A DNA stretch of 64,000 nt. Origin: Minisyncoccota bacterium. Its GTDB lineage: Bacteria; Patescibacteriota; Microgenomatia; PFEM01; JAFGMK01. Below the pieces are notes generated by a model. The model saw only the letters and a list, made by a program, of their open reading frames with translations, had not been told where the DNA came from and searched no databases. Positions within the stretch are counted from its first letter, which is position 1. The number at the start of each line of letters is the position of its first letter. Below are positions 9,487 through 48,427 of the stretch, in pieces. The stretch spans positions 37,942 through 101,941 of the forward strand of contig JAFGMK010000006.1 of the NCBI GenBank assembly GCA_016927565.1. Direction: 5' to 3'. A program made the translations under genes and the position numbers.

Positions 9487-10178
9487 CTTATCAATCTCTT
9501 TCTCACTGCCAAAGTTAAATATTGCCAGCCATCCTGAAAAGCCCTTAATTTACTTTTCCCCAATCTTTGATCATAGCTAATTTTCATCTGACCCCAACGG
9601 CATTTTAAATAATGAATCGCCTCAATCTTTATCTCATGACTAAAAAAGTATTGATTAGATCTTACTTTTAATTTTTGCCAAAGATTCCTTTGAATCAGGA
9701 ACATTCCTGACAAAGAATCATTAAGGCGGACTTTATAAATCAGGCGGAAATGCCAAGTTAAGAGCAGATTCCCAATCCGCTTAACCAACTGCATCGTCTT
9801 TAAAAACAGATAGTTTGAACCAAAACGGTCAGCCACCAAGAATTCTAATTTTCCTTTCAGGGAATAATCTAGCAACCGGGGAATTTCCTCAACCGGATAA
9901 GTCCCGTCAGCATCACAAACGACCATGATTTCTCCGCGGGAATCATTAAGGCCTCTTTTAATGGCATAACCATAACCCTGATTTTTTTCCCTTAAAACCC
10001 TAGCTCCTAATCGCCGGGCAACTTCGGCAGTTTTATCGGTTGAGTTGTTATCAACGACAACAATCTCGGTTTCAAAACCTCTGGCTCGGATCTCTTTAAC
10101 AGGAACAGCGGGAATAATCTTTTCTACACCCTGTTCCTCATTGTAGGCTGGTAAAATAAGAGAAAAATAATGTTTCAC
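9483..10178 (-). CDS. GT2 family glycosyltransferase, polyprenol-phosphate sugar synthase-like (DPM1/ArnC-like)
   Basis: LILPAYNEE...VVVDNNSTDKT...VCDADG are GT-A DxD-family motifs. 231 aa. Confidence 0.8.
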   Translation of the reverse strand: MKHYFSLILPAYNEEQGVEKIIPAVPVKEIRARGFETEIVVVDNNSTDKTAEVARRLGARVLREKNQGYGYAIKRGLNDSRGEIMVVCDADGTYPVEEIPRLLDYSLKGKLEFLVADRFGSNYLFLKTMQLVKRIGNLLLTWHFRLIYKVRLNDSLSGMFLIQRNLWQKLKVRSNQYFFSHEIKIEAIHYLKCRWGQMKISYDQRLGKSKLRAFQDGWQYLTLAVRKRLIR

Positions 10179-11994: not shown

Positions 11995-13524
11995 TTAGTA
12001 AAACTGATCTTTAGGTCTATATTGAAGCGCCTCAGCCAAATGGATAATTTTAATCTTTCCTTCCCCGGCCAAATCAGCAATGGTGCGGGCAATTTTAATG
12101 GTTTTAAAGTACGCCCGGGCAGAGAGATTCATTTGAGAAACAGCCTGACGAAGGAGACTAAGACAGTCTTTATCCAAGAGACAATGTTTTTTAATATCTT
12201 TGTTTTTCATTTCCGAGTTGGCTTTAATCTTTGTCTTTTTAAATCTTTGCCCCTGCTGATCCCGAGCAACCTGAACTCTTTTTTGAACGCTTTTTGAAGA
12301 TTCACTAATGACATTATCGCTGGTTAATTTTTCCACCGAAACAGCGGGCACTTGGACATGAAGGTCAATCCGGTCGAGGATCGGGCCGGAGATCTTTTTT
12401 TGGTAGCGGATAATCTGACCGGGCAAACACTTACATTCTTTTTTATCACTTCCAAGCCAACCGCAGGGGCAGGGATTCGAAGCGGCAATCAAAATAAACT
12501 CAGCCGGATAAGTAACTGTCCCTGCCGCTCGAGAAATGGTTACCCGACCATCCTCCATGGGTTGTCTCAGAGATTCCAAAACCGACCGGGGGAATTCCGG
12601 AAATTCGTCCAGAAACAGAACCCCCCGATGAGCCAAAGAAACCTCTCCCGGCCGGGGCCGGGCACCACCGCCGATTATTCCAACCTGGGAAACCGTGTGA
12701 TGAGGTGAACGAAAAGGACGGTTTTTAACAATTGCACTTTTCTCGGGTAAATTACCGGTAATCGAGTAAATTTTAGTTATCTCTAAAGCCTCTTCTTCGG
12801 TTAAATCAGGCAGAATTCCCGGCAAAGACCGGGCTAACATTGTTTTCCCGGAACCCGGTAAACCTTTTAGAAAAAGGTTGTGGCCTCCAGCGGCTGAGAT
12901 TTCCAGAGCTCTTTTGGCAAACTCTTGGCCCTTGATTTCTGAGAGGTCAAATTCGGCCTGAGGATCAGAAACCAAGGAAGAAAAGTCGGTTTTGGGAAAG
13001 GGCTTAACTTTTTTAAAACCGGAAAAATGACTAAAAAGCTTAACTAGATTAGGAATCGGGTAAACCTTAAGTCCGCCAACAACAGCGGCTTCAGAAGCAT
13101 CAACTTGGGGTAAAAAAACTTTTTTTAGCTTTTTCTTCTTGGCCAAAAGTGCTAAGGGCAAGACGCCGTTAGTGTGTCTTAAGGAGCCGTCGAGAGAGAG
13201 TTCGCCTAAAAAGAAGGTTTCTTTTAAGTTGGCGGCCATCTGGCCAGAGGCAATTAGGATTCCCACTGCCAAGGGTAGGTCATAAGCCGGGCCTTCTTTG
13301 GGCAGATTGGCGGGAGCCAAATTGATTGTAACCCGGTGGTCGGGAAACTTAGCTCCGGAGTTTCTAATAGCCGTAAAAACTCTTTCCTTGGCTTCTTCGA
13401 TGGCTTTGTTGGGCAGACCAACAATTTTAAATGAGGGAAAGCCTTTGGAGGAGACATCAACCTCAACCTCAACCAAAACCCCATCCAAACCAACGGTGGC
13501 GCCGGAAAAAACTTTGGCAAGCAT
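11995..13524 (-). CDS. comM: YifB/ComM family Mg-chelatase-like AAA+ ATPase
   Basis: N-terminal Lon-protease-like domain (MLAKVFSGATVGLDGVLVEVEVD), Walker A GLPGSGKT, and a C-terminal ChlI-like region. 509 aa. Confidence 0.9.
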   Translation of the reverse strand: MLAKVFSGATVGLDGVLVEVEVDVSSKGFPSFKIVGLPNKAIEEAKERVFTAIRNSGAKFPDHRVTINLAPANLPKEGPAYDLPLAVGILIASGQMAANLKETFFLGELSLDGSLRHTNGVLPLALLAKKKKLKKVFLPQVDASEAAVVGGLKVYPIPNLVKLFSHFSGFKKVKPFPKTDFSSLVSDPQAEFDLSEIKGQEFAKRALEISAAGGHNLFLKGLPGSGKTMLARSLPGILPDLTEEEALEITKIYSITGNLPEKSAIVKNRPFRSPHHTVSQVGIIGGGARPRPGEVSLAHRGVLFLDEFPEFPRSVLESLRQPMEDGRVTISRAAGTVTYPAEFILIAASNPCPCGWLGSDKKECKCLPGQIIRYQKKISGPILDRIDLHVQVPAVSVEKLTSDNVISESSKSVQKRVQVARDQQGQRFKKTKIKANSEMKNKDIKKHCLLDKDCLSLLRQAVSQMNLSARAYFKTIKIARTIADLAGEGKIKIIHLAEALQYRPKDQFY

Positions 13525-13545
13525 TAGTTTTTATGATAGCAAAAG
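13465..13545. repeat. copy A (genuine) of the comM 5'-end/promoter repeat
   Basis: AACCTCAACCAAAACCCCATCCAAACCAACGGTGGCGCCGGAAAAAACTTTGGCAAGCAT...TATGATAGCAAAAG covers the comM start codon and first ~20 codons. It recurs at 16175, 21465 and 22448. Confidence 0.85.
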
Positions 13546-13603
13546 GAGCTGTGAAGGGCAAAGCCTCAAGGGTTTAAAGCTAAAACATCTGAACGGGATT
13601 GAT

Positions 13604-14224
13604 TCATTTAAGAACATATCTTTCTATCTGAGAAACTACTAGCTCAGGTGTTAAACGAGTGGTGTCAATTGTCTCTGAATGAAAGTGTTTCCTGCCTATT
13701 TCGACAATTACTGCCTCCATAGCCATAAATCTTTCAGGCGCAGCAACAATCATTAAATCTCTCTCTGTGACTAGATCTGTTCTATCTTTACGCCTTTGCT
13801 CAAGCCGCTGCAGCCTTGCTTCTAGACTAGCAGTTAAAATAAACGAGTGATCAAAGAGGGGGTGTTGCGGCAACATATCAACTAGAACCTCGGGAATTCT
13901 TGGCGTTCCAGATACCGTGTGGAAAGCTAACGATCTTAAAATTATTGTCGAGTCCTGAATTGTATTAACTTCGGGCCATGTAAACATTTCCAAATCTGCC
14001 ATTAAAGCAACCGCATATAGGTTTCCTAAAATTTCTGGACTGAAGGAATCACTTCTACCAATCGAATCGGCTAATAATCGGATTATGTTTTCTTCTTGGC
14101 AAATACTTTTTCTTTGGACTATCCAGGGAGCTGATTGTCGGGAGGCAAAACTATTAGCTATTAAAGATTTACCAGCAAGATCCATTCCATCTAAATGGAT
14201 GAATTTAGCTCTTTCGGAATTCAT
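13604..14224 (-). CDS. thymidylate/dNMP kinase-like P-loop protein
   Basis: FIHLDGMDLAGKS fits GxxxxGKS in the position of the dTMP kinase P-loop. The LID-like and DR.x regions are weakly alignable to Tmk. The assignment is tentative. Confidence 0.45.
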   Translation of the reverse strand: MNSERAKFIHLDGMDLAGKSLIANSFASRQSAPWIVQRKSICQEENIIRLLADSIGRSDSFSPEILGNLYAVALMADLEMFTWPEVNTIQDSTIILRSLAFHTVSGTPRIPEVLVDMLPQHPLFDHSFILTASLEARLQRLEQRRKDRTDLVTERDLMIVAAPERFMAMEAVIVEIGRKHFHSETIDTTRLTPELVVSQIERYVLK

Positions 14225-14609
14225 TTAAGAAAACTTTGGTTTGGGGCACAATTTTTGAGGGCAACTTATTAAGAGAAAACCAGCGAACCTCCACTGTCTT
14301 ATCTAATGGCTTCGGGTTTCCGCTTAGATAATAAGATCTAAATCTTAGGTATATTTTTGCCTTTTTTTGATTAACTTCGGAAGATACTAGAAAATGATTC
14401 TTGATTCGAATATTGGTTTCCTCTAAAACTTCACGCGCCAAGCCGGAAGTTATTGTCTTATCCTTAAGCTCTATTTTCCCTCCGGGAATAACCCAAAAAC
14501 CAGGAAAAGTATCTTCATCTTGGCCACGCTTAACAAGTAAGACCTGGTCATCCTTAAAAATAGCGGTTGAAACATTAATTACAAATTGGGTGGCTTTTTT
14601 GTTTTTCAT
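14205..14609 (-). CDS. NUDIX hydrolase
   Basis: Nudix box GGKIELKDKTITSGLAREVLEETNI matches Gx5Ex7REUxEExGU. Confidence 0.75.
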   Translation of the reverse strand: MKNKKATQFVINVSTAIFKDDQVLLVKRGQDEDTFPGFWVIPGGKIELKDKTITSGLAREVLEETNIRIKNHFLVSSEVNQKKAKIYLRFRSYYLSGNPKPLDKTVEVRWFSLNKLPSKIVPQTKVFLNEFRKS

Positions 14610-14807
14610 CGGTGAAAATTATAATTTATTCAAAGGCAAGGTTACAGTCATTATTTTCAAAATTTCCCTTAAAGTAAACTATTTTATTTAATTAACTAAT
14701 TTATTTGTTTTTAAAACTGTATCATTAGCAATGTCCTAATGCTATTTATTACTTAGGCAATGTGTAAATAAGCTGCCCGTTATGATGCCTCTTGCTATAA
14801 TACATCC

Positions 14808-15368
14808 ATGGGTTATAAACGAATAAACTTCATTCTTGAAAAGAGCTTATATGCCCAGCTCAAGAAGCGCGCCGCAAAACAAGGTGTCCCAATTTCAAAA
14901 ACAGTTACTACTTGGATACAGAATTCCAATATTAACTCCGCTAAGATATCTCAACAGAAAATCACCGGAAGATTAACTACCTACAATTTCTGGGTTGATA
15001 AAGAAACCTATAAATTCCTAAAACAAATTTCGGGTGTAAAAAATGCTCAAATAAGCACCATTTTAAGATCATTAATATTTAACAATCTCAATCAAATAAA
15101 AGGCAGAAATGCCTGCGAAATTATTAAAATTAAAGCCGATAGATTATGGCTTGGCGGCCAGTTAATGCCCTTAAAAAAATATCTTTACTCCAACCTGGAT
15201 AGTCTAGATACTGACTCTCGACTTATACTTGCCCGGGTCTACTTAGAGCTGGGGATGTTTGACGAAGCGAAGCGCATAGGACGAGATGTGGCTAATAAGA
15301 AAAATAATCAGATTAACTCCATTAAGGCAAACACCATCCGGAGCAAATCCGAAGCTCTGCTTTATTAA
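14808..15368 (+). CDS. ribbon-helix-helix (CopG/Arc-like) domain protein, probably two RHH repeats
   Basis: N-terminal KRINFILEKSLYAQLKKRAAKQGVPISKTV has the RHH pattern. A second similar segment sits at residues ~60-95. TATAAT lies 6 nt upstream of the ATG, so the mRNA may be leaderless. Confidence 0.4.
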   Translation: MGYKRINFILEKSLYAQLKKRAAKQGVPISKTVTTWIQNSNINSAKISQQKITGRLTTYNFWVDKETYKFLKQISGVKNAQISTILRSLIFNNLNQIKGRNACEIIKIKADRLWLGGQLMPLKKYLYSNLDSLDTDSRLILARVYLELGMFDEAKRIGRDVANKKNNQINSIKANTIRSKSEALLY

Positions 15369-15409
15369 CTTTGGAAAACAAGAAAATTAGCCCAATGGCA
15401 ATATGATTT

Positions 15410-16039
15410 TTATTTTTTCATGCCTAGGAGCCGGTCCTTATCGATAGCGGCGTCATTTTCCATTAATTCACTCCACCACCACTCATTGGGATTGCTTTCT
15501 TTCATCAGGTAAACAATTTTTTTGGCAGAAGCAGTATTCATAGCCGGAACACGATCGTTAAAGTCAGACTCAAACCATTTTTGGGCCAGTTTATGTCCTT
15601 GCCACATCATTACCCACTCGGTGTAGATCTGGGTCAGGCTGTCGGCGTCTTTGACAATCTTGGCAATTCTGGTTTCTTGTCTTTCATACTCATCAAAAAG
15701 GGATTTGATGTTTTGGCCAAATTTGATACCTTCGACCTGTTTAGTTAAGGCTTTGTTTTCATCGATTTTGACATAATGCTTGGCGATAAAACCGATTTCG
15801 CCGGTCCTGGCTTCAACCAGATCATGGAAAAGAGCCATGGAAACACACTTGAGGCCGTCTTTATGGGATAAACCCTCCATCTGGGATAAAACATAAGCAA
15901 TAACACTACATTGATAGGAATGAGAAGCAACCGTATCAAAGGCATTACCCAGATGATACTGATGTGATCTTGGCATCAGCATTAAAAGACCCGATTGCTG
16001 AATCAAATGGAAAATTTTGGTTATCTCACTCTTAGTCAT
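15410..16039 (-). CDS. HD-domain phosphohydrolase, YfbR-like 5'-deoxynucleotidase family
   Basis: HSYQCSVIAYVL...ALFHDLVEARTGE is an H...HD metal-binding signature with YfbR-like spacing. Confidence 0.65.
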   Translation of the reverse strand: MTKSEITKIFHLIQQSGLLMLMPRSHQYHLGNAFDTVASHSYQCSVIAYVLSQMEGLSHKDGLKCVSMALFHDLVEARTGEIGFIAKHYVKIDENKALTKQVEGIKFGQNIKSLFDEYERQETRIAKIVKDADSLTQIYTEWVMMWQGHKLAQKWFESDFNDRVPAMNTASAKKIVYLMKESNPNEWWWSELMENDAAIDKDRLLGMKK

Positions 16040-16089
16040 AAGGTGAAATATACTATATCACAAAAATAACTCCTGATATTCCCTTTCTA

Positions 16090-16254
16090 ATTTTCTCCAA
16101 ACTTTGCTGTTTTGGTTCTTTATCTTGGAAATCTTTTTTTTAATTTCAAAGTGGCAGGTTAAATTGTGATCATAACCTCAACCAAAACCCCATCCAAACC
16201 AACAGTGGCGCCGGAAAAAACCTTTGAAAGCATTTGAGGTTATGATAGCAAAAT
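16090..16254. repeat. copy B of the comM 5'-end repeat (extended ~165 bp unit)
   Basis: Core 16175-16254 is near-identical to comM codons 1-20 plus ~25 bp upstream. An extra ~85 bp left arm is shared with copy C. It has an internal inverted repeat CATAACCTCAA...TTGAGGTTATG. Confidence 0.8.
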
Positions 16255-16306
16255 AGAGGGAGCAGAGCAAAGACTTGGAGGTGTAAATTTGACTTTTGAT
16301 TTTAGA

Positions 16307-16647: not shown

Positions 16648-17187
16648 ATGGAGTATAACACAGAAATAGCCTTTAGCAAAGACTTATGGGGTGAAATCGT
16701 TGAGGTTGAGTTTTGCCCCCAAGAAACACTTCCTTCTGAGGAGGAACTTCCTTTAACTGCAGTTTCTTGCATTGCTGTTACCGATGATAATAGAAGGGTT
16801 GTTTTGGCTAAAGTGCCCCGAGGTTGTGATCTGCCGGGTGGCCATATTGAAAGCGGCGAGAAGCCGGAGGACGCTCTAGCCCGTGAGCTAGAGGAAGAGA
16901 CCGGAGCTCGGTTTCAGGATAAACCGCACCTTATTGGGATTCGGAGAATGACTAAGAAGGCTGAGACTGTTCGAGTTCAACAATATCCGTTGGTAAGCGG
17001 GATTGCGGTATACATAGGAAGAGTAGTGTTGGATAAAAGCTTTGTTCCTCAGAAAGAATCATCGGAGAGAATTTTGGTCGATGTTCAAGAGATTGATCAG
17101 ATTCATCACCACTGGAGCCGGCAAGAGCAGGAGATTTTTGCTTATGCTAAAGAACGCTACCCTGATTACTTTCCCGACAAAATTTAA
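16648..17187 (+). CDS. NUDIX hydrolase
   Basis: Nudix box GGHIESGEKPEDALARELEEETGA. 179 aa. Converges on the 1368-aa gene with a 4-nt overlap. Confidence 0.75.
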   Translation: MEYNTEIAFSKDLWGEIVEVEFCPQETLPSEEELPLTAVSCIAVTDDNRRVVLAKVPRGCDLPGGHIESGEKPEDALARELEEETGARFQDKPHLIGIRRMTKKAETVRVQQYPLVSGIAVYIGRVVLDKSFVPQKESSERILVDVQEIDQIHHHWSRQEQEIFAYAKERYPDYFPDKI

Positions 17188-20100
17188 AGGCTGAATTTTT
17201 CTTTAATTATTGCAGCTGCTTTTTTGGCTCCTTCTAGACTTATTCGGGGTGATATCTCCGACATACGAGCAGCGTAGGTCGCTTGATCAGTAAGAGCTTG
17301 CTGAATCCCAGCATCAAGCCGGTCATTGTCTAGTCTGGAAAGAGGCAGGTTTTGGCCTAAGCCATGCTGTTCAACCAAAGCAGCATTATATTGCTGATCA
17401 GCGTTGGTAGTAATGGTAATAATCCCCCCCCTGCCCCTTTTCATAAAGGGATAAAGAGTACCGCTTCCACCCTGGCAGAGCAAGACATCGGCGTGGCTGG
17501 CGAGTTCAGGAAGATTGGCAAATTTTACGGGAACAAAGTTTTCCGGCAAATCAGCTGGTAATTCGGCATCGGCAGTAGTAACCATTATCATTGCCTCCGG
17601 TCTTTTTTGGGCAACTGCAAATAAGGCTTGATAAAGTTTGGGCTCTTTAATGCTCCCAAAACTACCAAAAATGATTTTTTTACCTTCTAATTTAGCCTGA
17701 GCAAGCTTAGCAACCGCTTCTTTGGTTGCCCCTTCGTCAACATACTGATTAATAATGGTTTCTGGCTGAATTGAACCGACGTAAGCCACCTCATTACCAT
17801 TGACCAGCTCTCGAAGCCGGGGGTCAAGATTAAAATCAGGGCCGACTCCCTGATTGACGAAAGCTTCATTATCGGCAATTATGGTCAGATCGGCAGCTTC
17901 CATATGTTGAAACCAGCTTGGATTATCGGTAGGCGGCTCGCCGATGTATTGTCTATGCGCTTCTTGATAAACCTGACGCAACTTAGGATCAAGCGGACGG
18001 TAGTACTTATCAGCCAATCTTTCTGCCTCAGGACCAAGTTTATGAATAAACGCCTCGGAGGTAAAACCAACATTGCTAAGATTGGTGATTGACACCGTGG
18101 GAACACCAGCCATTTTAGCAGCCATTAAAAGAGGGACATTATGATCTGAAAGAACAAATGGTGGCGGATTTTCTTCCAAGCGCTGGGCAATACGGACAAC
18201 ATTCCCGGCCATTTCTTTAACACTAAATTCTCCTTTGATTAAATGACCAGGATGGTAAAAATAATCATCAGATCTCTCAACTGTTACAGGCTTGCCTGGA
18301 GTTTCAAATCCCCGGCCAAGGTCAAAGACTTGCCGGCCACTTTCAGACCCACACATATTAGTTGGCACTCCGGCTCGGGCAAGTTCTAAAGCGACCTCAA
18401 GAGGTCGACCAGTATGAGCTGATACTCCAGGCAGATAACCCACCTCAACTGGCCTTGCCTGGCTTTTTTGTTCGCTAGCGATTGGGACTTCCGGATCTTC
18501 TTTTTCTTTTTTAGCCTGACTAAGCCTTTTCTCCTCGGCTCCCAACTCGTAGGCTGCATCAACTAAACTTGGCCAGACTTGATAGGTCCTAAGATAGCGC
18601 CGAACCCCCTTGCGGACTGACCGAATCTCTTTTGGCAAGGGCTGATTTTCGAGATCTTTCTCAACAGCTTCAATTGCTCCCTCAGGAAAGGCGTGAAGAA
18701 AACTTTCTAACTCATCAATAACCTGATCAGGCTCCGCAGAATCTATTTGCCTGGCAAATTCTACTTGTGCATCCAACAAACCTCTGAGTCTTTTTATTTC
18801 TTCAAGTTTTGCATGATTGGCCTCAAATGTTCGGATCGAAGCTTGGAGAGACTTGTCATCAGCAGGGGCAATTCCTAAAGCCTGCTTGGCTTCATTTTGA
18901 AGGCTAGGGCTACCATCAATAGCTTTAGAAATTTTGAATTGTTCCCTGGCGTAATTGTTGCTAAAAGCACCAACCATTTCGGCACCAAAAGCATCACCAC
19001 CACCCTGACGGGCAGCTCGCTGGTGCATTAGAGGCCTTTCTCGGCGGATAACCCGATTTGGATCAGCTGCGGTAGCTGCTTGAGCTCGAATAGCGCCGCT
19101 AAGATTATAGTCAAATATGCCCCCTAATGGAGTCGGGATTCCCTTAATCGCCTCACCTGAAAAAGTAATATTACCAAGATCAAGCTTACTGGCTTCTTGC
19201 CAATCTAAACCTTCTTTAAAATGGCGTTCCTCAGTCCACAGGGCGGCAATTGGCTGGCGGCGGACAGCCGCTTCAAGTATTTGAGGGAGCAATCGGTAGG
19301 CTTCGCTGGTTGACACCTGACGGAAGGCACCAGTTTCAGGATCAAAAATATTATAAGTACTAAAAGCGCCGCTATTTCTTTCAGTCATAATCTGAGTGGT
19401 TAGTTCCAGAGTATCCTTTACTAAAGAAATGGGGTTGCCGGTATGGCCAGTGTATCGGCCAATAGTGACTTGAGTTTCTGGATCTTCAAACCAGGCCGCT
19501 CTTTCAGCCAAGATATCGTGCTGATCTGTTCTTATAGTTCCTTCTTCGGTTCTAGTAAGAGTCCGATAGCGCTGATCGTCTTCATTAATGGTGATCGTTG
19601 TTTCCTTCAAGGGAACTCCTCGTTTACCAGCCTCATACGCCGCTGCTAAATAGCCAAAATTCTGAGTGCCGGCAATGCCTCCAAGCTCAGCTAAGGGATC
19701 AGCAAATTCAAAACTTTCTAAGTCCTCTCGAAGTGGCGCCTGAAGTCGGTCTTTTAATAAAGCCCGACTAAGCCAAAATTGATATCTTCTCTGTTTTTCG
19801 GTAAGGTCAGGATCTGCTTTTAGTTCTTGGGCAACTTTTTGGGCAAGTCTTTGAGCGAACCCAGTATTTTCCCTAACTCGGTAATAGCCGACTTGATATT
19901 TTTTAGCAACTTTGGCGATCTGTCTGGCAGCTTCATCATCCCAAGAATCATCAATAATAAAAACACCCACCTCACCTTGGTAAGCACTTTTTTGTCTAGA
20001 CTCAGCAAAATCTTCCAAAAATCGGTCAATTAATTCCGGGTTTTGTAAAGACTTGATACCAACCATTTGGAGCTTAGTCTCCCGAGGCTCTTCCTCCATT

Positions 20101-21290
20101 CGTTCTAAGTAACCTTCAATAAATGCTTTTACCCTGTCTGGTTCATGCATTTGAGGATCTGGCAGGGGCGGACTTTCGTACTTTTTCTTAAGAGCTTCGA
20201 CCTGATCTGGTCTGGCCGCCCACTTTTTTTTCCGAGGCTCGGTCCAATATTGGTCATACAAATACCATTCCTCAGCTCGTCTTTGCCAGGGAACTACTTC
20301 TTTGAGAAGGCGAATGCCCCTGGTTTCTTCACCAGCGACAAAGCCAACAAATTTATCAACGGCTGCTTTTACACCACCCGTTTTAATAGAATCATAATCA
20401 TCAGTCGCATCCTCAATCCCCCTAATGGCCACCTCATTTAGCAAAACAAGGCTTTGGGCTGAAAGACCCTTAATGGCAGTTTTTTCAGTAGGGTTTTTTC
20501 TGGTGATTACCGGGATATATTGACCTGAATCTTGATCTAAAACAATATCAGTGGCTGAGTTATAAACACCACTATATAAAGCTTCAACTAACTGGAGGCG
20601 GTTTTTGTAGACATTGAGGTGAAAATCGGGGTCACTACCTTCTTCAAGAATTCCGTGAGTATTTCTGGTTCCATTTGGCCACAGATCAACAAACTCCCCC
20701 TCTATCTCTGCTTCGGGATTAACATCATTTATCAGGCCAGTTAATCCCCGGTAGCTTAGGCCAACAGCGCTTTGACTATCCGCCAAAATTACTTTTTTAG
20801 CTTTGGCGACTCCCATTTGTCTTAAATAGCCTCGATAACGGTCATAAAAATCCGGGCCATGAGCAGTTCCCCTAACCAAGGGATTAAATTGGCCGTTGTA
20901 ATGGAGATATCTTGTTCTGCCGGGATCAATTTCTTGATATTCAGCTACTTTTTCCCTGAGTTTTTGGGCAGCAATATGAATCGGCAAACCATCTCTGGCC
21001 AAGGTCAAAGCAAGACTATCTGGTTCGTTTTTGAGCTTGGTTAATACTTTATCGGCTAAGAGGATATATACCGGAGCAACAACTTCCCTTGTCTGGGAGT
21101 AAACCTCTTTTGCCAAGGCGCGGAAGCGCTCCTCTTGTTCTGGTGGAACCTTCCTTTCTTTGACCAGGTGATCGAGATACTGACCAAGCCTATCCGAATC
21201 CTGCTCGTGTTCCTGGCCTGTTTCTTGGTCGGCAATTGGTTTGCTTGGCTGATCCTCGATTGGCTTAACCCCGTTAGCACCTTCTCCCAT
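17184..21290 (-). CDS. 1368-aa multidomain protein: unknown N-terminal ~880 aa with a possible GT-A-like segment, plus a C-terminal GT1-family (MGT/UGT-like, GT-B fold) glycosyltransferase domain
   Basis: The C-terminal ~480 aa has a GT1 N-lobe motif (YLPGVSAHTGRPLEVALELARAGVP) and a C-lobe nucleotide-sugar motif (HADVLLCQGGSGTLYPFMKRGRGGIITITTNADQQYNAALVEQHGLG). A mid-protein segment (VGVFIIDDSWDDEAARQIAKVAKKYQVGYYRVRENTGFA) weakly resembles a GT2 N-terminal region. The protein is rich in A/E/R/Q/G/P, unlike the neighbouring proteins. Confidence 0.65.
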   Translation of the reverse strand: MGEGANGVKPIEDQPSKPIADQETGQEHEQDSDRLGQYLDHLVKERKVPPEQEERFRALAKEVYSQTREVVAPVYILLADKVLTKLKNEPDSLALTLARDGLPIHIAAQKLREKVAEYQEIDPGRTRYLHYNGQFNPLVRGTAHGPDFYDRYRGYLRQMGVAKAKKVILADSQSAVGLSYRGLTGLINDVNPEAEIEGEFVDLWPNGTRNTHGILEEGSDPDFHLNVYKNRLQLVEALYSGVYNSATDIVLDQDSGQYIPVITRKNPTEKTAIKGLSAQSLVLLNEVAIRGIEDATDDYDSIKTGGVKAAVDKFVGFVAGEETRGIRLLKEVVPWQRRAEEWYLYDQYWTEPRKKKWAARPDQVEALKKKYESPPLPDPQMHEPDRVKAFIEGYLERMEEEPRETKLQMVGIKSLQNPELIDRFLEDFAESRQKSAYQGEVGVFIIDDSWDDEAARQIAKVAKKYQVGYYRVRENTGFAQRLAQKVAQELKADPDLTEKQRRYQFWLSRALLKDRLQAPLREDLESFEFADPLAELGGIAGTQNFGYLAAAYEAGKRGVPLKETTITINEDDQRYRTLTRTEEGTIRTDQHDILAERAAWFEDPETQVTIGRYTGHTGNPISLVKDTLELTTQIMTERNSGAFSTYNIFDPETGAFRQVSTSEAYRLLPQILEAAVRRQPIAALWTEERHFKEGLDWQEASKLDLGNITFSGEAIKGIPTPLGGIFDYNLSGAIRAQAATAADPNRVIRRERPLMHQRAARQGGGDAFGAEMVGAFSNNYAREQFKISKAIDGSPSLQNEAKQALGIAPADDKSLQASIRTFEANHAKLEEIKRLRGLLDAQVEFARQIDSAEPDQVIDELESFLHAFPEGAIEAVEKDLENQPLPKEIRSVRKGVRRYLRTYQVWPSLVDAAYELGAEEKRLSQAKKEKEDPEVPIASEQKSQARPVEVGYLPGVSAHTGRPLEVALELARAGVPTNMCGSESGRQVFDLGRGFETPGKPVTVERSDDYFYHPGHLIKGEFSVKEMAGNVVRIAQRLEENPPPFVLSDHNVPLLMAAKMAGVPTVSITNLSNVGFTSEAFIHKLGPEAERLADKYYRPLDPKLRQVYQEAHRQYIGEPPTDNPSWFQHMEAADLTIIADNEAFVNQGVGPDFNLDPRLRELVNGNEVAYVGSIQPETIINQYVDEGATKEAVAKLAQAKLEGKKIIFGSFGSIKEPKLYQALFAVAQKRPEAMIMVTTADAELPADLPENFVPVKFANLPELASHADVLLCQGGSGTLYPFMKRGRGGIITITTNADQQYNAALVEQHGLGQNLPLSRLDNDRLDAGIQQALTDQATYAARMSEISPRISLEGAKKAAAIIKEKFSL

Positions 21291-21364
21291 TATATAATGC
21301 TAGCTCATTAGCTGAAAAATTAAAATCCCTACTTTCTCGAACCCTATCATAAACACAAGCCCCG

Positions 21365-21544
21365 ATATTCCTTTTCAGGTTTTTTCCAAATCTCACTCTT
21401 TTGATTCTTAATCTTAGGAATCCTCTTTTAAACCTCAAAGTGGCAGGTTAAATTGTGATTCATAACCTCAACCAAAACCCCATCCAAACCAACGGTGGCG
21501 CCGGAAAAAACCTTTGAAAGCATTTGAGGTTATGATAGCAAAAG
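21365..21544. repeat. copy C of the comM 5'-end repeat (extended unit, near-identical to copy B)
   Basis: Core is 21465-21544. Left arm 21378-21464 matches 16090-16174. Confidence 0.8.
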
Positions 21545-21671
21545 AATGCTAAGGACACAAAGATCCTAAGACGTGAACTCAAATCAATCTAAGGGCGGAG
21601 AATCGCTAAAGGAAAGGAGTTGTGTTATTATGACGGGGTAAAGACTATTTTAAAACATTTGATTTTTTAAT

Positions 21672-22418
21672 ATGAACTCTAAACCCCAAAAGGAGGTTTC
21701 TAAGTCAGGAATACCAATTTTGCGCCATCAGCAAGCAGCTAAACCGCCTAAAAAAACTTCCTATCCTACCGAAGAATACCTCAAAGTTTTGGATAAACAC
21801 ATTAAAAAATATATTGGGGAGGCAAAAACTGTTTTTCATGAATTGATTTCGGAGTATGTCCACTTGGATGTTTACTTTATTGAGGCTAGTAAAAAAAGAA
21901 ATTTTCATACCCTAGTGACCGCAGGAATGAGCCTTTTGCCAATGAATGTTCCTCCCGGATTAGAAAGTCATCGCTTTGCCGAACTTTTAATTTGTCTACC
22001 GGCTAGCTGGCCTTTGAGTAAAGAAGCTTTTAAAAAAGAAGCTAATTACTGGCCGGTAAGACAACTTAAGATGTTGGCACGCCTGCCCCATGTTTACCGA
22101 ACCTTTCTTTACATTGGTCATACTGTGCCCAATGGTAACCCTCCCAAGCCTCTTGCTAATAATACCCGCTTTGATTGTCTGCTTTTACTCCCACCAATTC
22201 TTTTCCCCAAAGAATTCAGCTCTCTTAAAATCAACAAAGATAAAACAGTTCATTTTTACGCTCTAATCCCTCTCTACCCTGAAGAAACTGCCTTTAAACT
22301 AGACCAGGGAACGTCTAAGTTATTCCGGAAGTTGGACCAGGCCCGAGTTACCGAGTTGGTAGATATTAACAGACCCAGTTTGATTAGCAAAAAAAATAAC
22401 AAAGGGCAGGCAGCATAA
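21672..22418 (+). CDS. SUFU-like (suppressor-of-fused family) domain protein
   Basis: FHTLVTAGMSLLPMNVPPG, WPVRQLKMLARLPHVY, GHTVPNGNPPKPLANNTRFDCLLLLPP and FYALIPLYPEE match the conserved blocks of bacterial SUFU-family proteins. These are recalled from memory and were not searched. Confidence 0.5.
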   Translation: MNSKPQKEVSKSGIPILRHQQAAKPPKKTSYPTEEYLKVLDKHIKKYIGEAKTVFHELISEYVHLDVYFIEASKKRNFHTLVTAGMSLLPMNVPPGLESHRFAELLICLPASWPLSKEAFKKEANYWPVRQLKMLARLPHVYRTFLYIGHTVPNGNPPKPLANNTRFDCLLLLPPILFPKEFSSLKINKDKTVHFYALIPLYPEETAFKLDQGTSKLFRKLDQARVTELVDINRPSLISKKNNKGQAA

Positions 22419-22447
22419 ACTTAAAGAAAACCTTTTAAAGAGACAGC

Positions 22448-22525
22448 AACCTCAACCAAAACCCCATCCAAGCCAACGTGGCGTCGGAAAAAACTTTAGC
22501 CAGCATTTGAAATCATGACAGCAAA
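22448..22525. repeat. copy D of the comM 5'-end repeat (most diverged, 1-nt deletion)
   Basis: AACCTCAACCAAAACCCCATCCAAGCCAACGTGGCGTCGGAAAAAACTTTAGCCAGCAT...CATGACAGCAAAAA. Confidence 0.75.
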
Positions 22526-22596
22526 AAAAGAGAGGGAGAGTAAAATTCCTGAGATGTAAAGCTAAACTACCCTAAGGGTGTAAACTGATAAAAATA

Positions 22597-22636
22597 ACGA
22601 TCCCGGATCGTCTGCAGATTTCGATCCGGGATCGGG
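22597..22636. repeat. dispersed palindromic repeat, copy 1 (CGATCCCGGATCG-TCTGCAGATTT-CGATCCGGGATCG)
   Basis: Perfect 13-bp inverted arms around a palindromic PstI-like loop. The flanks (GATAAAGATAACG on the left, GCTCCGGA..GTCAAAGAA on the right) are shared with the other copies, so the full unit is ~75 bp. Confidence 0.8.
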
Positions 22637-22895
22637 GAAGCTCCGGATAGTCAAAGAACATGAGCAGTTACGTACTGGGTTGGCACCTGTCTCCGGAACG
22701 GCCAAGCCGGAATCGAACCTATCAATGGAAAATGTCAGTCAATTTTTCCTGGCTTTTGTTGCCGTGAATCGCCGCTGCCCTAAAACCACTTCTGACTAGG
22801 TTTATGGCAAGCTTATTTACCCCCCTCAATAGTGTATGGAAAATCTCGATCTTCTTCTTTTACCAACATGGAAAAAAATTTACGAAAACGGCCAG

Positions 22896-27081: not shown

Positions 27082-28095
27082 TTATTTCTGATTCAAAGCC
27101 CGACGGATAATTCCCACCAGACTGTTAAAGTGGCATTGGTCATAATCGCTTCGGTAAAAACCGCCTTTAAACATGGGGGCTAATTTTTGCAAACTGGAAA
27201 GAACTAAACCAATCTTTAGGGCCCGATCAAACAAATCATCCTGAATCCGTTTTGATTTTTTAACTTCTTTAATTAATTTTTTTCCCAGCTTGATATTTTC
27301 CCAAGCCCGGGTATAAAAACTAGCCACATCCAAGCCCCAATCAAGAAGGGGCAAACAAGACCAATAGGCGCTTTCCCAATCAAGCAAAACCGCTCTTTTG
27401 GTCCCAAAGAAGACATTATTGGGAGCCAGGTCGCCGTGAATTAAAACGCCCGGGGCTTGTTTGGCTTTGAAGAATGATTCTTTAAACTTTTTAAAAAAAA
27501 GAATGACAGTTTGGCCATCAGATTTCAGCCAATTCAAGTCGGAAACTTCTAGAGCCGGATAAAGAGTTTCAAGGTGCTCCCGAATCCGACTTTCGACTTC
27601 GTTGATAATGACTGATTTTTGCTTATTAATCAAAAGATAGGGTTTTAGCTTAATGGGAAGGTCTGACTGTTTAATTTGCCAAAGTTGACGAAGAGCATGG
27701 CCGAGAGCAATCATCTTTTTGGGTTTAAGCGAGGAGATGTTTTCTTCCCGACAAATTAGTCCCTGATTATCTCTAAAATACTGACCAACGTACCAAAAAA
27801 GGTTTTTTATTTGGCCGGAGTCAAAGATCCGCCGGGCCAGATTACTCTCCCGGGAAAGCCATTTTTGGATTAATAATTCTTTTTGGAACCTTCGCAATAG
27901 GCCGGGCTTATCACTAAAAGCGCCTTTGAAAAATAATTTTTTACCCTCGGAATTGATAAGTGGAAAATAAACAAAGCGGGGGGTCTCTTTAGTCAAACAC
28001 CGGCGAAGCTCAATTCGATCGGGCTGCCAGCTTCTTCTTTCAGTTAAAGAAAGAATCACTTTTAATCTTTGTTGATACTCGGTTTCAGATAACAT
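27082..28095 (-). CDS. phosphotransferase family protein (APH/choline-kinase-like kinase fold)
   Basis: The catalytic loop region VLIHGDLAPNNVFF...LLDWESAYW matches the HGDxxxxN...D motif of PF01636-like kinases. Confidence 0.55.
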   Translation of the reverse strand: MLSETEYQQRLKVILSLTERRSWQPDRIELRRCLTKETPRFVYFPLINSEGKKLFFKGAFSDKPGLLRRFQKELLIQKWLSRESNLARRIFDSGQIKNLFWYVGQYFRDNQGLICREENISSLKPKKMIALGHALRQLWQIKQSDLPIKLKPYLLINKQKSVIINEVESRIREHLETLYPALEVSDLNWLKSDGQTVILFFKKFKESFFKAKQAPGVLIHGDLAPNNVFFGTKRAVLLDWESAYWSCLPLLDWGLDVASFYTRAWENIKLGKKLIKEVKKSKRIQDDLFDRALKIGLVLSSLQKLAPMFKGGFYRSDYDQCHFNSLVGIIRRALNQK

Positions 28096-28114: not shown

Positions 28115-29122
28115 CTAAACTAAAGCGGCTCTTAACATCTTGATCAGGGTATTAAAATGCCGCCGGTCATAGTCTGTTTGACAGATCCCAAACTTAAACA
28201 TCGGGGCAATTTTTTGCAGAATGGAAAAGACCAAACCAATGGTCAGGCTTTTGGGGAAAAAAGGCTCTTTTGCCCAAGGCGATTTTTTTACTTCGGCGAT
28301 TAACTCTTTTCCCAACTCAGGCCGTAACCAGGCCCGGGTGGAAAAATTAGCCACATCAATGCCCAAAGCCAAAAGGAGATTATCGGTCCAACAAACCCAT
28401 TCCCAATCAAAAATAACCAGCTTATTTTCTTTAAAAAAAACATTGTTCGGCGCCAGGTCGCCATGGACTAAAACTCCCCGGCCATTCTGAAACTTGACGA
28501 TCTCTTTTTTTAGGCTTTTAAAAAAGCCTAAGATTGCTTTTTCATCTGCCTCGCTCCAATCCAGTTTAGTTTTACCAAAAGCTCCTCTTAGGGTTATCAG
28601 ATAACGCCGCGTCTTGGTGATTAATCTTTCAAAGGTCTTAATATTTTTCGGGGCTGATGATAACTCTTTAAAAAGATTCCGGGGGATTTGACTTTGTTTA
28701 ATTTGCCACAGTTTTTTTATCTCCACCCCCAGAGCGCGCATGTGTGCCAACGTCAAAAGGGAAATATCCTCATCCAAACAAACAATACCATTCTTACCCG
28801 AATAATAAGGACCAATATACCAAAAAACCCTGCCTTCTTGGGAAAAATCAGCTACAGGCCTAACCGGCCCGCCTTGCCTGGCTAACCAAACCTGAGCTGC
28901 CATTTCCTTCCTGAGGTTGTTACCAAGAGACTGGCCGCCAATCAAACAGCCTTTATAAAAAAATTCTTTTCCGGCAGAGTCGGTGAAAGGAAAGTAAAGA
29001 AAGCGGGGCTTTTCCTTTTTAAGAACTTTATTAACTTGAGAATAATTTATCTGCCAACCTTTTTTTTGAGCTAAGTCAATCAAAAAGTCGAGGTTTTTTT
29101 GCTGATTCTTTTGGGAAAGCAT
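28115..29122 (-). CDS. phosphotransferase family protein (APH-like), tandem paralogue of the 27082-28095 gene
   Basis: VLVHGDLAPNNVFF...IFDWEWVCW. Same length and overall collinearity as its neighbour. Confidence 0.55.
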   Translation of the reverse strand: MLSQKNQQKNLDFLIDLAQKKGWQINYSQVNKVLKKEKPRFLYFPFTDSAGKEFFYKGCLIGGQSLGNNLRKEMAAQVWLARQGGPVRPVADFSQEGRVFWYIGPYYSGKNGIVCLDEDISLLTLAHMRALGVEIKKLWQIKQSQIPRNLFKELSSAPKNIKTFERLITKTRRYLITLRGAFGKTKLDWSEADEKAILGFFKSLKKEIVKFQNGRGVLVHGDLAPNNVFFKENKLVIFDWEWVCWTDNLLLALGIDVANFSTRAWLRPELGKELIAEVKKSPWAKEPFFPKSLTIGLVFSILQKIAPMFKFGICQTDYDRRHFNTLIKMLRAALV

Positions 29123-34736: not shown

Positions 34737-34871
34737 TTTTTCACCCCCCTTCTTTTTTGAGAAATTATTTTTTGATTCCGAATATGATCTCAGCTTAGCA
34801 GAGAAATAAGAAACTTGTCAATAAGCCTCTTTTCTCTGTGTTTACTCAGTTTCTTTAATAAATCGCGGCCA

Positions 34872-34910
34872 TTCGATCCCGGATCGAAATCTGCAGTCCA
34901 TCCGGAACCG
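34872..34910. repeat. dispersed palindromic repeat, copy 2 (reverse orientation, second arm degenerate)
   Basis: TTCGATCCCGGATCGAAATCTGCAGTCCATCCGGAACCG. Located in the 5' region of the pilin gene. Confidence 0.65.
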
Positions 34911-34963
34911 TTGTTCTCGTCAAAAAGTGTGAGCAGCTGCCTTTTCTCTTTATTCTTTTCAGC

Positions 34964-39622: not shown

Positions 39623-40231
39623 TTAGATTTTTTCCACCGTCACCACTCCTAATTTATTAATGCTTATCTTTCTTTTCTGGTTTCCCCGCCGGTCAGTCAA
39701 AATAAAATAATTGTTCACCGGATCAAAGTTGCGGACCTGTCCGGTAATTTTTTCAAAAACACAATCATCTGAAGAAAGGCTGATATCATTTATCGCTAAT
39801 TCTGGGGCTAAATCAAATTTTTGATTGAGCGGATTATCGGGATTAAAGCCGATTCCTCCAAAAAGAGTGTAGCGGGCACTTTCAAAATGGACACCGAAAT
39901 TTAAAGCCGTCGGCTGGCCATAAGAATAACCGGCCAGAGTTTTGACCCTGGCCTGGAAAAGACAGGCAGTTATTTTCTTTGCCTCAGCTTCAATTCTGTC
40001 TTGCCGGGCAAAACCGCTCATCACCACCGTTCCCAAACCGAAAAGGACTGATAAAACACCAATAACAACAATTATCTCGATTAGAGTCAGACCGGCTTCC
40101 TTTTTATAATTGCTCACATTCTTTGATAAAGATAACGGTCTCGGATCGTCTGCAGATTTCGATCCGGGATCGAATAACAGCTCGGAATCGTTATTTTTTT
40201 CAAAGAGAACAGACAGTTTCTCTTTTTTCAT
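39623..40231 (-). CDS. type IV pilin; the real start is probably the internal GTG at 40117
   Basis: ...VSNYKKEAG/LTLIEIIVVIGVLSVLFGL. The ATG-initiated ORF gives an implausible 42-aa leader, and that leader contains the dispersed palindromic repeat. A GTG start would give the 9-aa leader MSNYKKEAG. Confidence 0.65.
   Translation of the reverse strand: MKKEKLSVLFEKNNDSELLFDPGSKSADDPRPLSLSKNVSNYKKEAGLTLIEIIVVIGVLSVLFGLGTVVMSGFARQDRIEAEAKKITACLFQARVKTLAGYSYGQPTALNFGVHFESARYTLFGGIGFNPDNPLNQKFDLAPELAINDISLSSDDCVFEKITGQVRNFDPVNNYFILTDRRGNQKRKISINKLGVVTVEKI
40134..40172. repeat. dispersed palindromic repeat, copy 3
   Basis: GGTCTCGGATCGTCTGCAGATTTCGATCCGGGATCG, with GATAAAGATAACG on the left and GCTCGGAATCG..CAAAGAGAA on the right. 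Lies just upstream of the likely pilin start. Confidence 0.75.
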
Positions 40232-47461: not shown

Positions 47462-47839
47462 TCAGTTCTCGGAGGATAAAAAAACCTCCACTTCAGCTAA
47501 AATCTCATCCGGTTTTAGAGCCTGTTTCATTAAATAGCCATTGGCCCCCAAACGCATGGCCCTTTTGATAAATTTATCCTGATTCAAAACCGTCAGCATG
47601 ACAATTTTTTGATTGCTGATCGGAGGACTAAGTTGTTTCAGCTGAAAAAGAAGGGAAATGCCGTCTTTTTTGGGCAGCATGATGTCAAGCAGAATTAGAT
47701 CATAACCCCCCCGGGAAGCCAAATCAAACCCGGCTTGGCCGTCGCTGGCTGTTTCAACCTGATAACCTTGCTGTTTGAAAAGAAGTTCGTAAAGTTCCCT
47801 CGTAAAACGATCATCTTCAACCAGAAGAAGTTTATACAT
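47462..47839 (-). CDS. stand-alone receiver-domain protein (tandem paralogue 1)
   Basis: MYKLLLVEDDRFTRELY...DLILLDIMLPKKDG. Start taken at the ATG at 47839. The ORF track starts it at a GTG at 47863. Confidence 0.7.
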   Translation of the reverse strand: MYKLLLVEDDRFTRELYELLFKQQGYQVETASDGQAGFDLASRGGYDLILLDIMLPKKDGISLLFQLKQLSPPISNQKIVMLTVLNQDKFIKRAMRLGANGYLMKQALKPDEILAEVEVFLSSEN

Positions 47840-47859: not shown

Positions 47860-48234
47860 TCACTCCGTCTTTAAAAAGACGGCTATCTCAGCCAAAACCT
47901 CATCCGGCCTCAGGGCTGATTTCATCAGATAGCCATGAGCTCCCATTCGCAAGGCGTTTTTAATAAACTCATCCTGATTCAAAACCGTCAGCATGACAAT
48001 TTTTTTATTTTTTTTCTTAGCCGGAATTTCTTTTATTTTTCTCAGAAAAGTCAAACCGTCAATCTTGGGCATAATGATATCCAGCAGGATTAGATCAAAC
48101 CCGCCTTCAATTGCCTTAGCAAGACCGGCTGCCCCGTCTTCAGCTACTTCCAAATCATAACCCTCTCCTTTTAAAAGAGTTTCATATAGCTCGCGGGTGA
48201 AACGATCGTCCTCAATTAAAAGTATCCTGACCAT
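47860..48234 (-). CDS. stand-alone receiver-domain protein (tandem paralogue 2)
   Basis: MVRILLIEDDRFTRELY...DLILLDIIMPKIDG. Roughly half identical to its neighbour by eye. Start taken at the ATG at 48234. The ORF track uses a TTG at 48270. Confidence 0.7.
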   Translation of the reverse strand: MVRILLIEDDRFTRELYETLLKGEGYDLEVAEDGAAGLAKAIEGGFDLILLDIIMPKIDGLTFLRKIKEIPAKKKNKKIVMLTVLNQDEFIKNALRMGAHGYLMKSALRPDEVLAEIAVFLKTE

Positions 48235-48301
48235 TAAATTTAATATAACATTCTTTAGAAAGCCGATCAAGGTAAATTACTCGCACTCTTTAACAAAGAT
48301 A

Positions 48302-48338
48302 ACGATTCCGGATCGTCTGCAGATTTTGATCCGGGATC
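48302..48338. repeat. dispersed palindromic repeat, copy 4
   Basis: CGATTCCGGATCGTCTGCAGATTTTGATCCGGGATCA, with AAAGATAACG on the left and GCCTGGAATTGTCAAAGAA on the right. Confidence 0.75.
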
Positions 48339-48427
48339 AAGTGAGCCTGGAATTGTCAAAGAAACTAAGTAAAGACCAATCAAGATAATCTTGGCAAAAA
48401 ATAAAATTTATAGTATGATGAAAAATA

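Follow-up and report, generated by a model that had tools for sequence, protein, structure and literature searches.

The DNA analyzed herein was a 64-kb window of a metagenome-assembled genome of Candidatus Pacebacteria, in which a 2.6-kb stretch immediately upstream of comM/YifB carries four open reading frames (ORFs), one of them encoding a P-loop protein with the NCBI locus tag JW991_00775 on a contig of 150,754 bp. All of the four ORFs, which an earlier note on this DNA had placed at 13604-16039, were found at these positions, and the four reading frames are all intact. Together with comM, they are arranged as follows.

11995-13524, minus strand: comM/YifB, Mg-chelatase-like AAA ATPase; intact, 509 aa (NCBIfam TIGR00368, 7.7e-181, above the cut-off)
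13604-14224, minus strand: P-loop protein of the thymidylate-kinase fold, nucleoside monophosphate (NMP)-kinase-like; 206 aa, Walker A motif GMDLAGKS
14205-14609, minus strand: NUDIX hydrolase; 134 aa, first gene of a two-gene operon
14610-14807, no strand assigned: divergent intergenic region between the NUDIX operon and the ribbon-helix-helix (RHH) gene; AT-rich, 27% GC, candidate operator
14808-15368, plus strand: tandem-RHH protein with a short tail resembling tetratricopeptide repeats (TPR); 186 aa
15410-16039, minus strand: HD_3/YfbR-HDDC2-like HD phosphohydrolase; 209 aa, directly downstream of a comM-derived repeat (copy B, listed below)

While the earlier note regarded these genes as one functional module of nucleotide metabolism, comparison with other genomes revealed that they are two unrelated gene pairs, not one conserved system. 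The complete set was found only in the window genome and in an identical Logan contig. The conservation of the set across relatives was checked with the neighborhoods of the kinase family in 56 species-representative genomes (loci L002-L057, with the kinase at around position 10000 in most), and in none of them did an HD, RHH, or comM gene stand beside the kinase. A NUDIX gene was located within 1.3 kb of the kinase in two of these genomes (L009 and L019).

The closest homologue of the window kinase (61% identical, locus L063) is preceded by a NUDIX gene whose product is 50% identical to the window NUDIX. Since both this pair and the 20-nt overlap between the start of the kinase gene and the stop of the NUDIX gene recur at L063, the two genes constitute the conserved unit. 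This is the single further occurrence of the pair, in a different context; the other neighbor of the L063 kinase is a GDP-mannose dehydratase-like gene, an assignment judged from the translation with no profile match behind it. As for the second pair, the tandem-RHH protein is, judged from its sequence, a short form of an RHH-RHH-TPR family of ~465 aa, in that an exhaustive search yielded 24 remote relatives, mostly of this length and aligning only to the first ~160 residues, and no close relatives. The closest homologue of the HD protein (74% identical, locus L064) is encoded convergently with a gene whose C-terminus matches this RHH-TPR family (hhalign, 4.8e-5; hmmsearch, 7.2e-7 when calculated on the six-frame ORFs of L058-L069 only), which is likewise the single further occurrence of the convergent pair, again in a different context. 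The HD homologues of 56-72% identity, read at five loci representing three distinct genomic places, had unrelated neighbors in all; at one of these places, a second HD_3 gene and a gene of the Ham1p-like house-cleaning NTPase family adjoin.

The family labels given to the four proteins in the earlier note held at the superfamily level, as judged from profile searches, predicted structures, and catalytic motifs. None of the four proteins reached a curated functional (equivalog) threshold, and all NCBIfam functional models scored far below their cut-offs. The P-loop protein gave only 15.4 bits (E = 0.016) against Pfam Thymidylate_kin (PF02223), under the gathering threshold of 27 bits, while it matched a PHROG thymidylate kinase profile at 1e-5 and thymidylate kinases (TMKs) at E = 0.0015 in a profile search of the PDB. 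Its AlphaFold model, which is confident (pLDDT 93.9), adopts the NMP-kinase/TMK fold; all of the 17 top Foldseek matches were dTMP kinases (TM score 0.63-0.70, 15-19% identity), followed by deoxynucleoside kinases. Alignment of 27 family members identified G13, D15, G18, K19, D77, Q90, S92, R97, R137, R140, and R144 as invariant, with Ser or Thr at position 20, and all of the invariant residues are present in the window protein. The protein thus has a Walker A P-loop and a basic lid (R137, R140, and R144), and it resembles TMK/CMPK2-type kinases in its GxxxxGKS loop, its three invariant lid arginines, and its five-stranded NMP-kinase fold. It differs from TMKs in falling below the Pfam cut-off, in its low identity to the solved enzymes, and probably in the family motif Q90-D91-S92, which stands at the end of the strand 87-91 in what may be the position of DR[YHF] in TMKs.

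The NUDIX protein scored well above the cut-off of Pfam PF00293 (2.3e-16, 60.5 bits versus 21.1), and its best sub-threshold NCBIfam matches were PRK08999, MutT, and the pyrimidine (d)NTP diphosphatase family. Compared with the consensus GX5EX7REUXEEXGU, its Nudix box GGKIELKDKTITSGLAREVLEETNI keeps the REVLEE core but has one extra residue before RE and N for the final G. Hence, it shares the fold and the catalytic core with MutT/NudG-type pyrophosphohydrolases, and differs from them in this altered box and in reaching no equivalog threshold.

The HD protein exceeded the cut-offs of both Pfam HD_3 (8.9e-20, 71.7 bits versus 22.5) and Pfam YfbR-like (4.6e-8, 33.4 bits versus 25.9), and its PDB sequence matches included AF1432 (1.5e-14) and human HDDC2 (3e-6). 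In an alignment of 20 homologues, R24, H40, H72, D73, and D133 were invariant and E76 nearly so; the window protein has the H...HD...D metal ligands and the HDxxE glutamate. These features are those of E. coli YfbR, human HDDC2, and Archaeoglobus AF1432. On the other hand, the protein, a putative nucleotidase, remained far under the cut-off of the 5'-deoxynucleotidase equivalog NF003009 (21.3 bits versus 122), and the aligned homologues from the Candidate Phyla Radiation (CPR) have a conserved C-terminal Trp-rich extension (W142...W187-W189) that distinguishes them from YfbR/HDDC2. A set resembling that of Z-genome phages, namely an HD dATPase with an NTP pyrophosphatase, was also considered and rejected, as the PHROG "dATP triphosphohydrolase" match (4e-9) was far weaker than that to HD_3 (9e-20) and there was no PurZ-like gene.

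In the tandem-RHH protein, residues 3-37 matched a PHROG Arc-like repressor profile at 4e-7, with the Pfam models below their cut-offs. The structural model (pLDDT 75.8) contains two strand-helix-helix units at 3-39 (strand 3-11, helices 12-25 and 29-39) and 56 to ~95 (strand 56-64, helix 65-78, and a helix from 82), followed by helical hairpins. In Foldseek searches with this model, the top matches were small chains of the F-plasmid relaxosome (target-normalized TM score 0.74, E = 4e-3) and then TPR proteins. The two strand-helix-helix units per chain are thus shared with the F-plasmid relaxosome accessory protein and the Arc/CopG repressors, whereas the Foldseek E value is weak and the window protein is fused to TPR-like helices within an uncharacterized family; no evidence of a relaxase or an oriT was found beside it. 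The divergent region 14610-14807 contains promoter-like hexamers and short repeats, none of which is above chance singly. The repeats were discarded as operator candidates, being just short AT-rich repeats with nothing convincing among them. An extended -10-like box, TGCTATAAT, lies before the RHH gene (14792-14810), ~6-9 nt 5' of its ATG, and one of the same kind, TGCTATCAT, occurs at the same distance at comM (13524-13545) and in the repeat copies; this short spacing, as read from the sequence, suggests that the transcripts may be leaderless or have very short leaders.

The stretch with the four genes is the first of three tandem segments (2.6, 5.2, and 0.9 kb) that sit at the 5' end of an intact comM and are bounded by diverged copies of its promoter and start region. 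The bounding regions of the array span 13465-13578, 16056-16287, 21345-21577, and 22426-22560. The copies, with an arm associated with the second, are located as follows.

13465-13578, minus strand: repeat copy A, with the real comM start codon, the first ~20 codons, and a promoter-like TGcTATCAT -10 box
16056-16170, minus strand: arm between copy B and the start of the HD gene, 115 nt
16174-16287, minus strand: repeat copy B, a diverged comM promoter with the first 20 codons, ending in a 24-codon frame toward the HD gene
21464-21577, minus strand: repeat copy C, direct copy of ~114 nt
22447-22560, minus strand: repeat copy D, direct copy of ~114 nt

On its minus strand, each copy presents a TGcTATCAT-type -10 box, an ATG, and ~20 comM codons, and only copy A runs on into comM. 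A core of 24 nt is identical in all four copies, whereas 0.00 were expected in shuffled sequences; copies A and B are 80% identical over 114 nt, and exact identity extends over at most 30 nt (A/B), 48 nt (A/C), and 49 nt (B/C). Furthermore, the arm at 16056-16170 is 78% identical to that at 21345-21459, which lies between copy C and the gene for a 1368-aa protein. Neither the repeats nor the arms gave an Rfam match at E values up to 1, and their fold z-scores were +0.2 and +0.5, providing no indication of a structured RNA or riboswitch. Segment 2 comprises an 84-aa ORF, a second NUDIX gene (16648-17187), and the gene for the 1368-aa protein (17184-21290, minus strand), in which a C-terminal GT28/EryCIII-like glycosyltransferase is the only recognizable domain; segment 3 encodes a SUFU-family protein (21672-22418, plus strand; Pfam, 2.2e-46). 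Because a Logan contig assembled independently (SRR13394437) is exactly equal to 13483-16199 of the window, the continuity of segment 1 is supported; this contig breaks inside the cores of A and B, within their 30-nt exact stretch.

The claim of the earlier note that the segment is repeat-bounded and accessory was supported. The GC content of segment 1 is 37.4%, versus 42.0% for the window, and its tetranucleotide deviation lies 2.2 standard deviations above the window mean (z = 2.2), with 2.5 for segment 2. Among metagenome loci, the repeat core was found only at L065, where comM is 78% identical and the downstream flank partly syntenic. This locus has a single core copy, and the 3.3 kb read upstream of its comM carries unrelated genes, which encode an EpsG-like fragment, an EamA transporter, a hydrolase, and a PNPOx-like protein. 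No similarity to the same attachment context was found for the HD gene at L064 or the kinase at L063. Site-specific islands have direct repeats that duplicate the target site, as the four copies do here, and an integrase or recombinase of their own; no recombinase domain was found in the eight ORFs of segments 1-3 or in ten further integrase-sized ORFs of the window, which were the ORFs scanned. Genomic islands targeting comM are known, e.g., the AbaR-type islands of Acinetobacter. The array resembles them in having foreign DNA at comM with direct repeats at its bounds, but differs in that comM stays intact, that the repeats are diverged promoter/5'-end copies of ~110 nt, and that it consists of three small tandem segments with no integrase or transposase in the scanned ORFs. 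No support for a phage or plasmid origin came from searches in which the kinase family was absent from IMG/VR by pattern scan, the kinase and HD proteins had no tblastn match in 50,697 phage records, the kinase had none in 72,556 plasmid records, and the repeat core was absent from viral contigs.

These observations bear on the alternative that the four are ordinary core salvage genes of the lineage that stand upstream of comM by chance, with the repeats being old and immobile local duplications. The HD family would suit such a view, as its motifs are strongly conserved and its members, 50-74% identical, are spread over numerous CPR lineages (176 matches, including WWE3, Amesbacteria, and Shapirobacteria, with 49-74% identity in the aligned homologues). 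So would the frequency of NUDIX genes in these genomes (one or two within 12-16 kb at each of L058 and L059) and the lack of an integrase among the ORFs scanned. However, the kinase family is sporadic, with 126 homologues among 5.8 billion clusters, the RHH protein has remote relatives only, the composition departs from that of the window, and L065 combines a single core copy with other genes upstream of comM. In addition, copies B and C share the extra 115-nt arm, which is not derived from comM, as related inserted units would. The refutation that the earlier note had itself envisaged, namely that these are core and unlinked salvage genes, applies to the HD gene, which behaves like a widespread unlinked CPR gene, and not to the sporadic kinase. 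We consider this alternative distinctly improbable.

In other genomes, the kinase family keeps different company. Within 3 kb of the kinase, a GFO_IDH_MocA-like protein of ~480 aa was encoded at 25 loci, a thiamine pyrophosphate (TPP)-enzyme-like protein of ~450 aa at 17, an Abhydrolase_11 protein at 9, and a ~430-aa fusion of a kinase paralogue with a radical S-adenosylmethionine (radical-SAM) domain at 20. The first three make up clusters in CPR and Planctomycetota loci, and those with the radical-SAM fusion are from Vulcanimicrobiota, Planctomycetota, and Selenomonadaceae. At three loci (L015, L017, and L019), the partner is a prokaryotic viperin of 284 aa (PADLOC pVip, 1e-30 to 1e-32), accompanied by a methyltransferase and a histidine phosphatase, with the kinase gene directly downstream of the viperin gene. 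The non-viperin partners matched no PADLOC model above noise. These clusters look like uncharacterized nucleotide-modification clusters. Of the bacterial viperins, 12% are documented to have a neighboring NMP kinase, mostly CMPK2-like, with two small bacterial clades having kinases of separate origin (bioRxiv 10.1101/2023.09.13.557418).

From such linkage arises a second alternative, that the window genes are a nucleotide-centered defense or counter-defense unit, left over or derived from viperin-type systems producing or handling chain-terminating nucleotide analogues. In this case, the kinase would provide the nucleotide or recycle it, whereas analogue tri- and monophosphates would be broken down by the NUDIX and HD enzymes for self-protection or detoxification, with the RHH-TPR protein as the regulator. 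The kinases directly downstream of pVip-matching proteins, the radical-SAM fusion neighbors at the 20 further loci, and the documented viperin-kinase linkage (bioRxiv 10.1101/2023.09.13.557418) speak for it. So does a locus (L068, 1196-10151) in which two viperin-like radical-SAM genes flank a full-length RHH-TPR relative, together with a PNP_UDP_1 nucleoside phosphorylase, two methyltransferases, a Ppx-GppA protein, and an ASCH protein; elsewhere (L069), the RHH-TPR relatives form a tandem pair beside an HTH regulator. The segment is also accessory cargo adjoining one with a SUFU-family gene, and SUFU proteins make up one of the common families of immunity proteins in polymorphic toxin systems.

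The evidence from the window itself points the other way. No viperin or other radical-SAM gene was found in segments 1-3, either adjoining the kinase or near it, and a direct search showed the GFO-like, TPP, and hydrolase partners to be absent from the window, a search that did not extend to the viperin and radical-SAM-fusion partners. The viperin-linked kinases, while adjoining viperins as distant members of the same family, are just 34-36% identical to the window kinase, whose partner is a NUDIX gene rather than a viperin gene and whose match to the PADLOC viperin-associated kinase model (E = 0.0019) covers the P-loop only. The VakA and PDC-M51B matches in PADLOC (E about 0.002-0.004) are confined to the P-loop, the only candidate on the segment, PDC-S07 NUDIX (1e-14), is no better than the generic Pfam NUDIX match, and the radical-SAM proteins of L068 match pVip (1e-15 to 1e-17) in their N-terminal core only. 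The signature proteins by which PADLOC recognizes nucleotide-depletion or analogue defense systems (dCTP deaminase, dGTPase, pVip, and others) were lacking. As PADLOC thus yielded generic NUDIX and P-loop-level matches only, a known defense system was rejected. The phage-defense function suggested in the earlier note was hence not upheld, since no known defense protein was matched and the sole lead was the linkage of distant kinase-family members to viperins. We judge the defense unit unlikely and would treat it as a minority hypothesis, founded on the company of the kinase family and on one RHH-TPR relative elsewhere. A more specific form of it seems to us quite unlikely: the motifs EGMDLAGKS and QDSTxxLRS of the kinase family would mark uncharacterized nucleotide-modifying clusters, of which the window genes would be a stripped-down variant. 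In an episymbiotic CPR bacterium, this variant would handle or detoxify antiviral nucleotide analogues, having arrived as a recombinase-less cassette along with a copy of the comM promoter and start.

A third alternative regards the segment as cargo in decay that now has hardly any function or none. The RHH protein has 186 aa as compared with the ~465 aa usual in its family, the Nudix box deviates while that of the L063 orthologue is canonical, and the kinase is without its usual partner genes. Nevertheless, the four intact reading frames, the retention of all family-invariant residues in both the kinase and the HD protein, and the NUDIX-kinase overlap kept between two genomes at 50-61% protein identity speak against decay, which we regard as very unlikely.

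We therefore favor, with moderate confidence, the interpretation that segment 1 is a mosaic of horizontally acquired cargo, composed of two independently inherited pairs and serving nucleotide-pool salvage or sanitation. From the genes, folds, motifs, repeats, and conserved neighborhoods described above, we infer the substrates, regulation, promoter use, and mode of insertion as follows. The segment, one unit of the three-segment tandem array, would have been acquired horizontally and integrated at the 5' end of comM, with no recombinase gene of its own apparent. Its first pair would consist of the NUDIX hydrolase and the NMP kinase of the thymidylate-kinase fold, coupled in translation, and its second of the YfbR/HDDC2-type HD nucleotidase, convergent with the shortened tandem-RHH/TPR DNA-binding protein. 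The NUDIX enzyme would hydrolyze a (d)NTP, probably of a pyrimidine, that is in excess or non-canonical, yielding the (d)NMP; the kinase would bring an NMP or dNMP back to the diphosphate level, and the HD enzyme would dephosphorylate (d)NMPs to nucleosides. The divergent promoter region at 14610-14807 is the probable target of repression by the RHH protein, and the comM-type promoter copy in repeat B probably drives the HD gene. Cargo for pool salvage or sanitation is in keeping with the lineage, because Patescibacteria have been described as being without known nucleotide biosynthesis pathways and as having received nucleotide-metabolism genes by transfer (PMC12455944).

Several points weigh against this interpretation. 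The four proteins are known by family only, and their substrates are predicted. A NUDIX step from NTP to NMP runs counter to an NMP kinase, except where the two enzymes have different specificities. The non-canonical Nudix box and the shortened RHH protein may indicate that parts of the segment are decaying. In most genomes, moreover, the kinase adjoins radical-SAM, viperin, oxidoreductase, or TPP enzymes, which implies a role more specialized than general salvage. Lastly, the genome was covered over 64 kb, and canonical tmk, cmk, and yfbR genes may lie beyond the window.

Taken by itself, the four-gene segment represents a modest finding, that of accessory nucleotide-pool enzymes in a reduced genome. 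Of broader significance is the divergent TMK-fold family, whose members elsewhere lie nearly always inside conserved clusters with radical-SAM/viperin or oxidoreductase/TPP enzymes; these clusters are candidates for new nucleotide-modification or defense chemistry. The tandem cargo segments with copies of the comM promoter and start, and with no integrase found, represent an unusual form of gene addition that spares the target gene.

Other features of the window were also noted. No tRNA or tmRNA gene was detected by ARAGORN across the 64 kb. A dispersed repeat of ~65 nt occurs directly at 22590-22658, 40128-40196, and 48295-48363 and inverted at 34871-34935, with 70-95% identity; it holds two near-palindromic boxes of the CGATCCCGGATCG type and resembles repetitive extragenic palindromic (REP) elements. 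Two paralogous genes for proteins of ~336 aa adjoin at 27082-28095 and 28115-29122, with a 91-nt stretch 71% identical, and a local duplication of 234 nt (72% identity) was found at 47477-47710 and 47872-48105.

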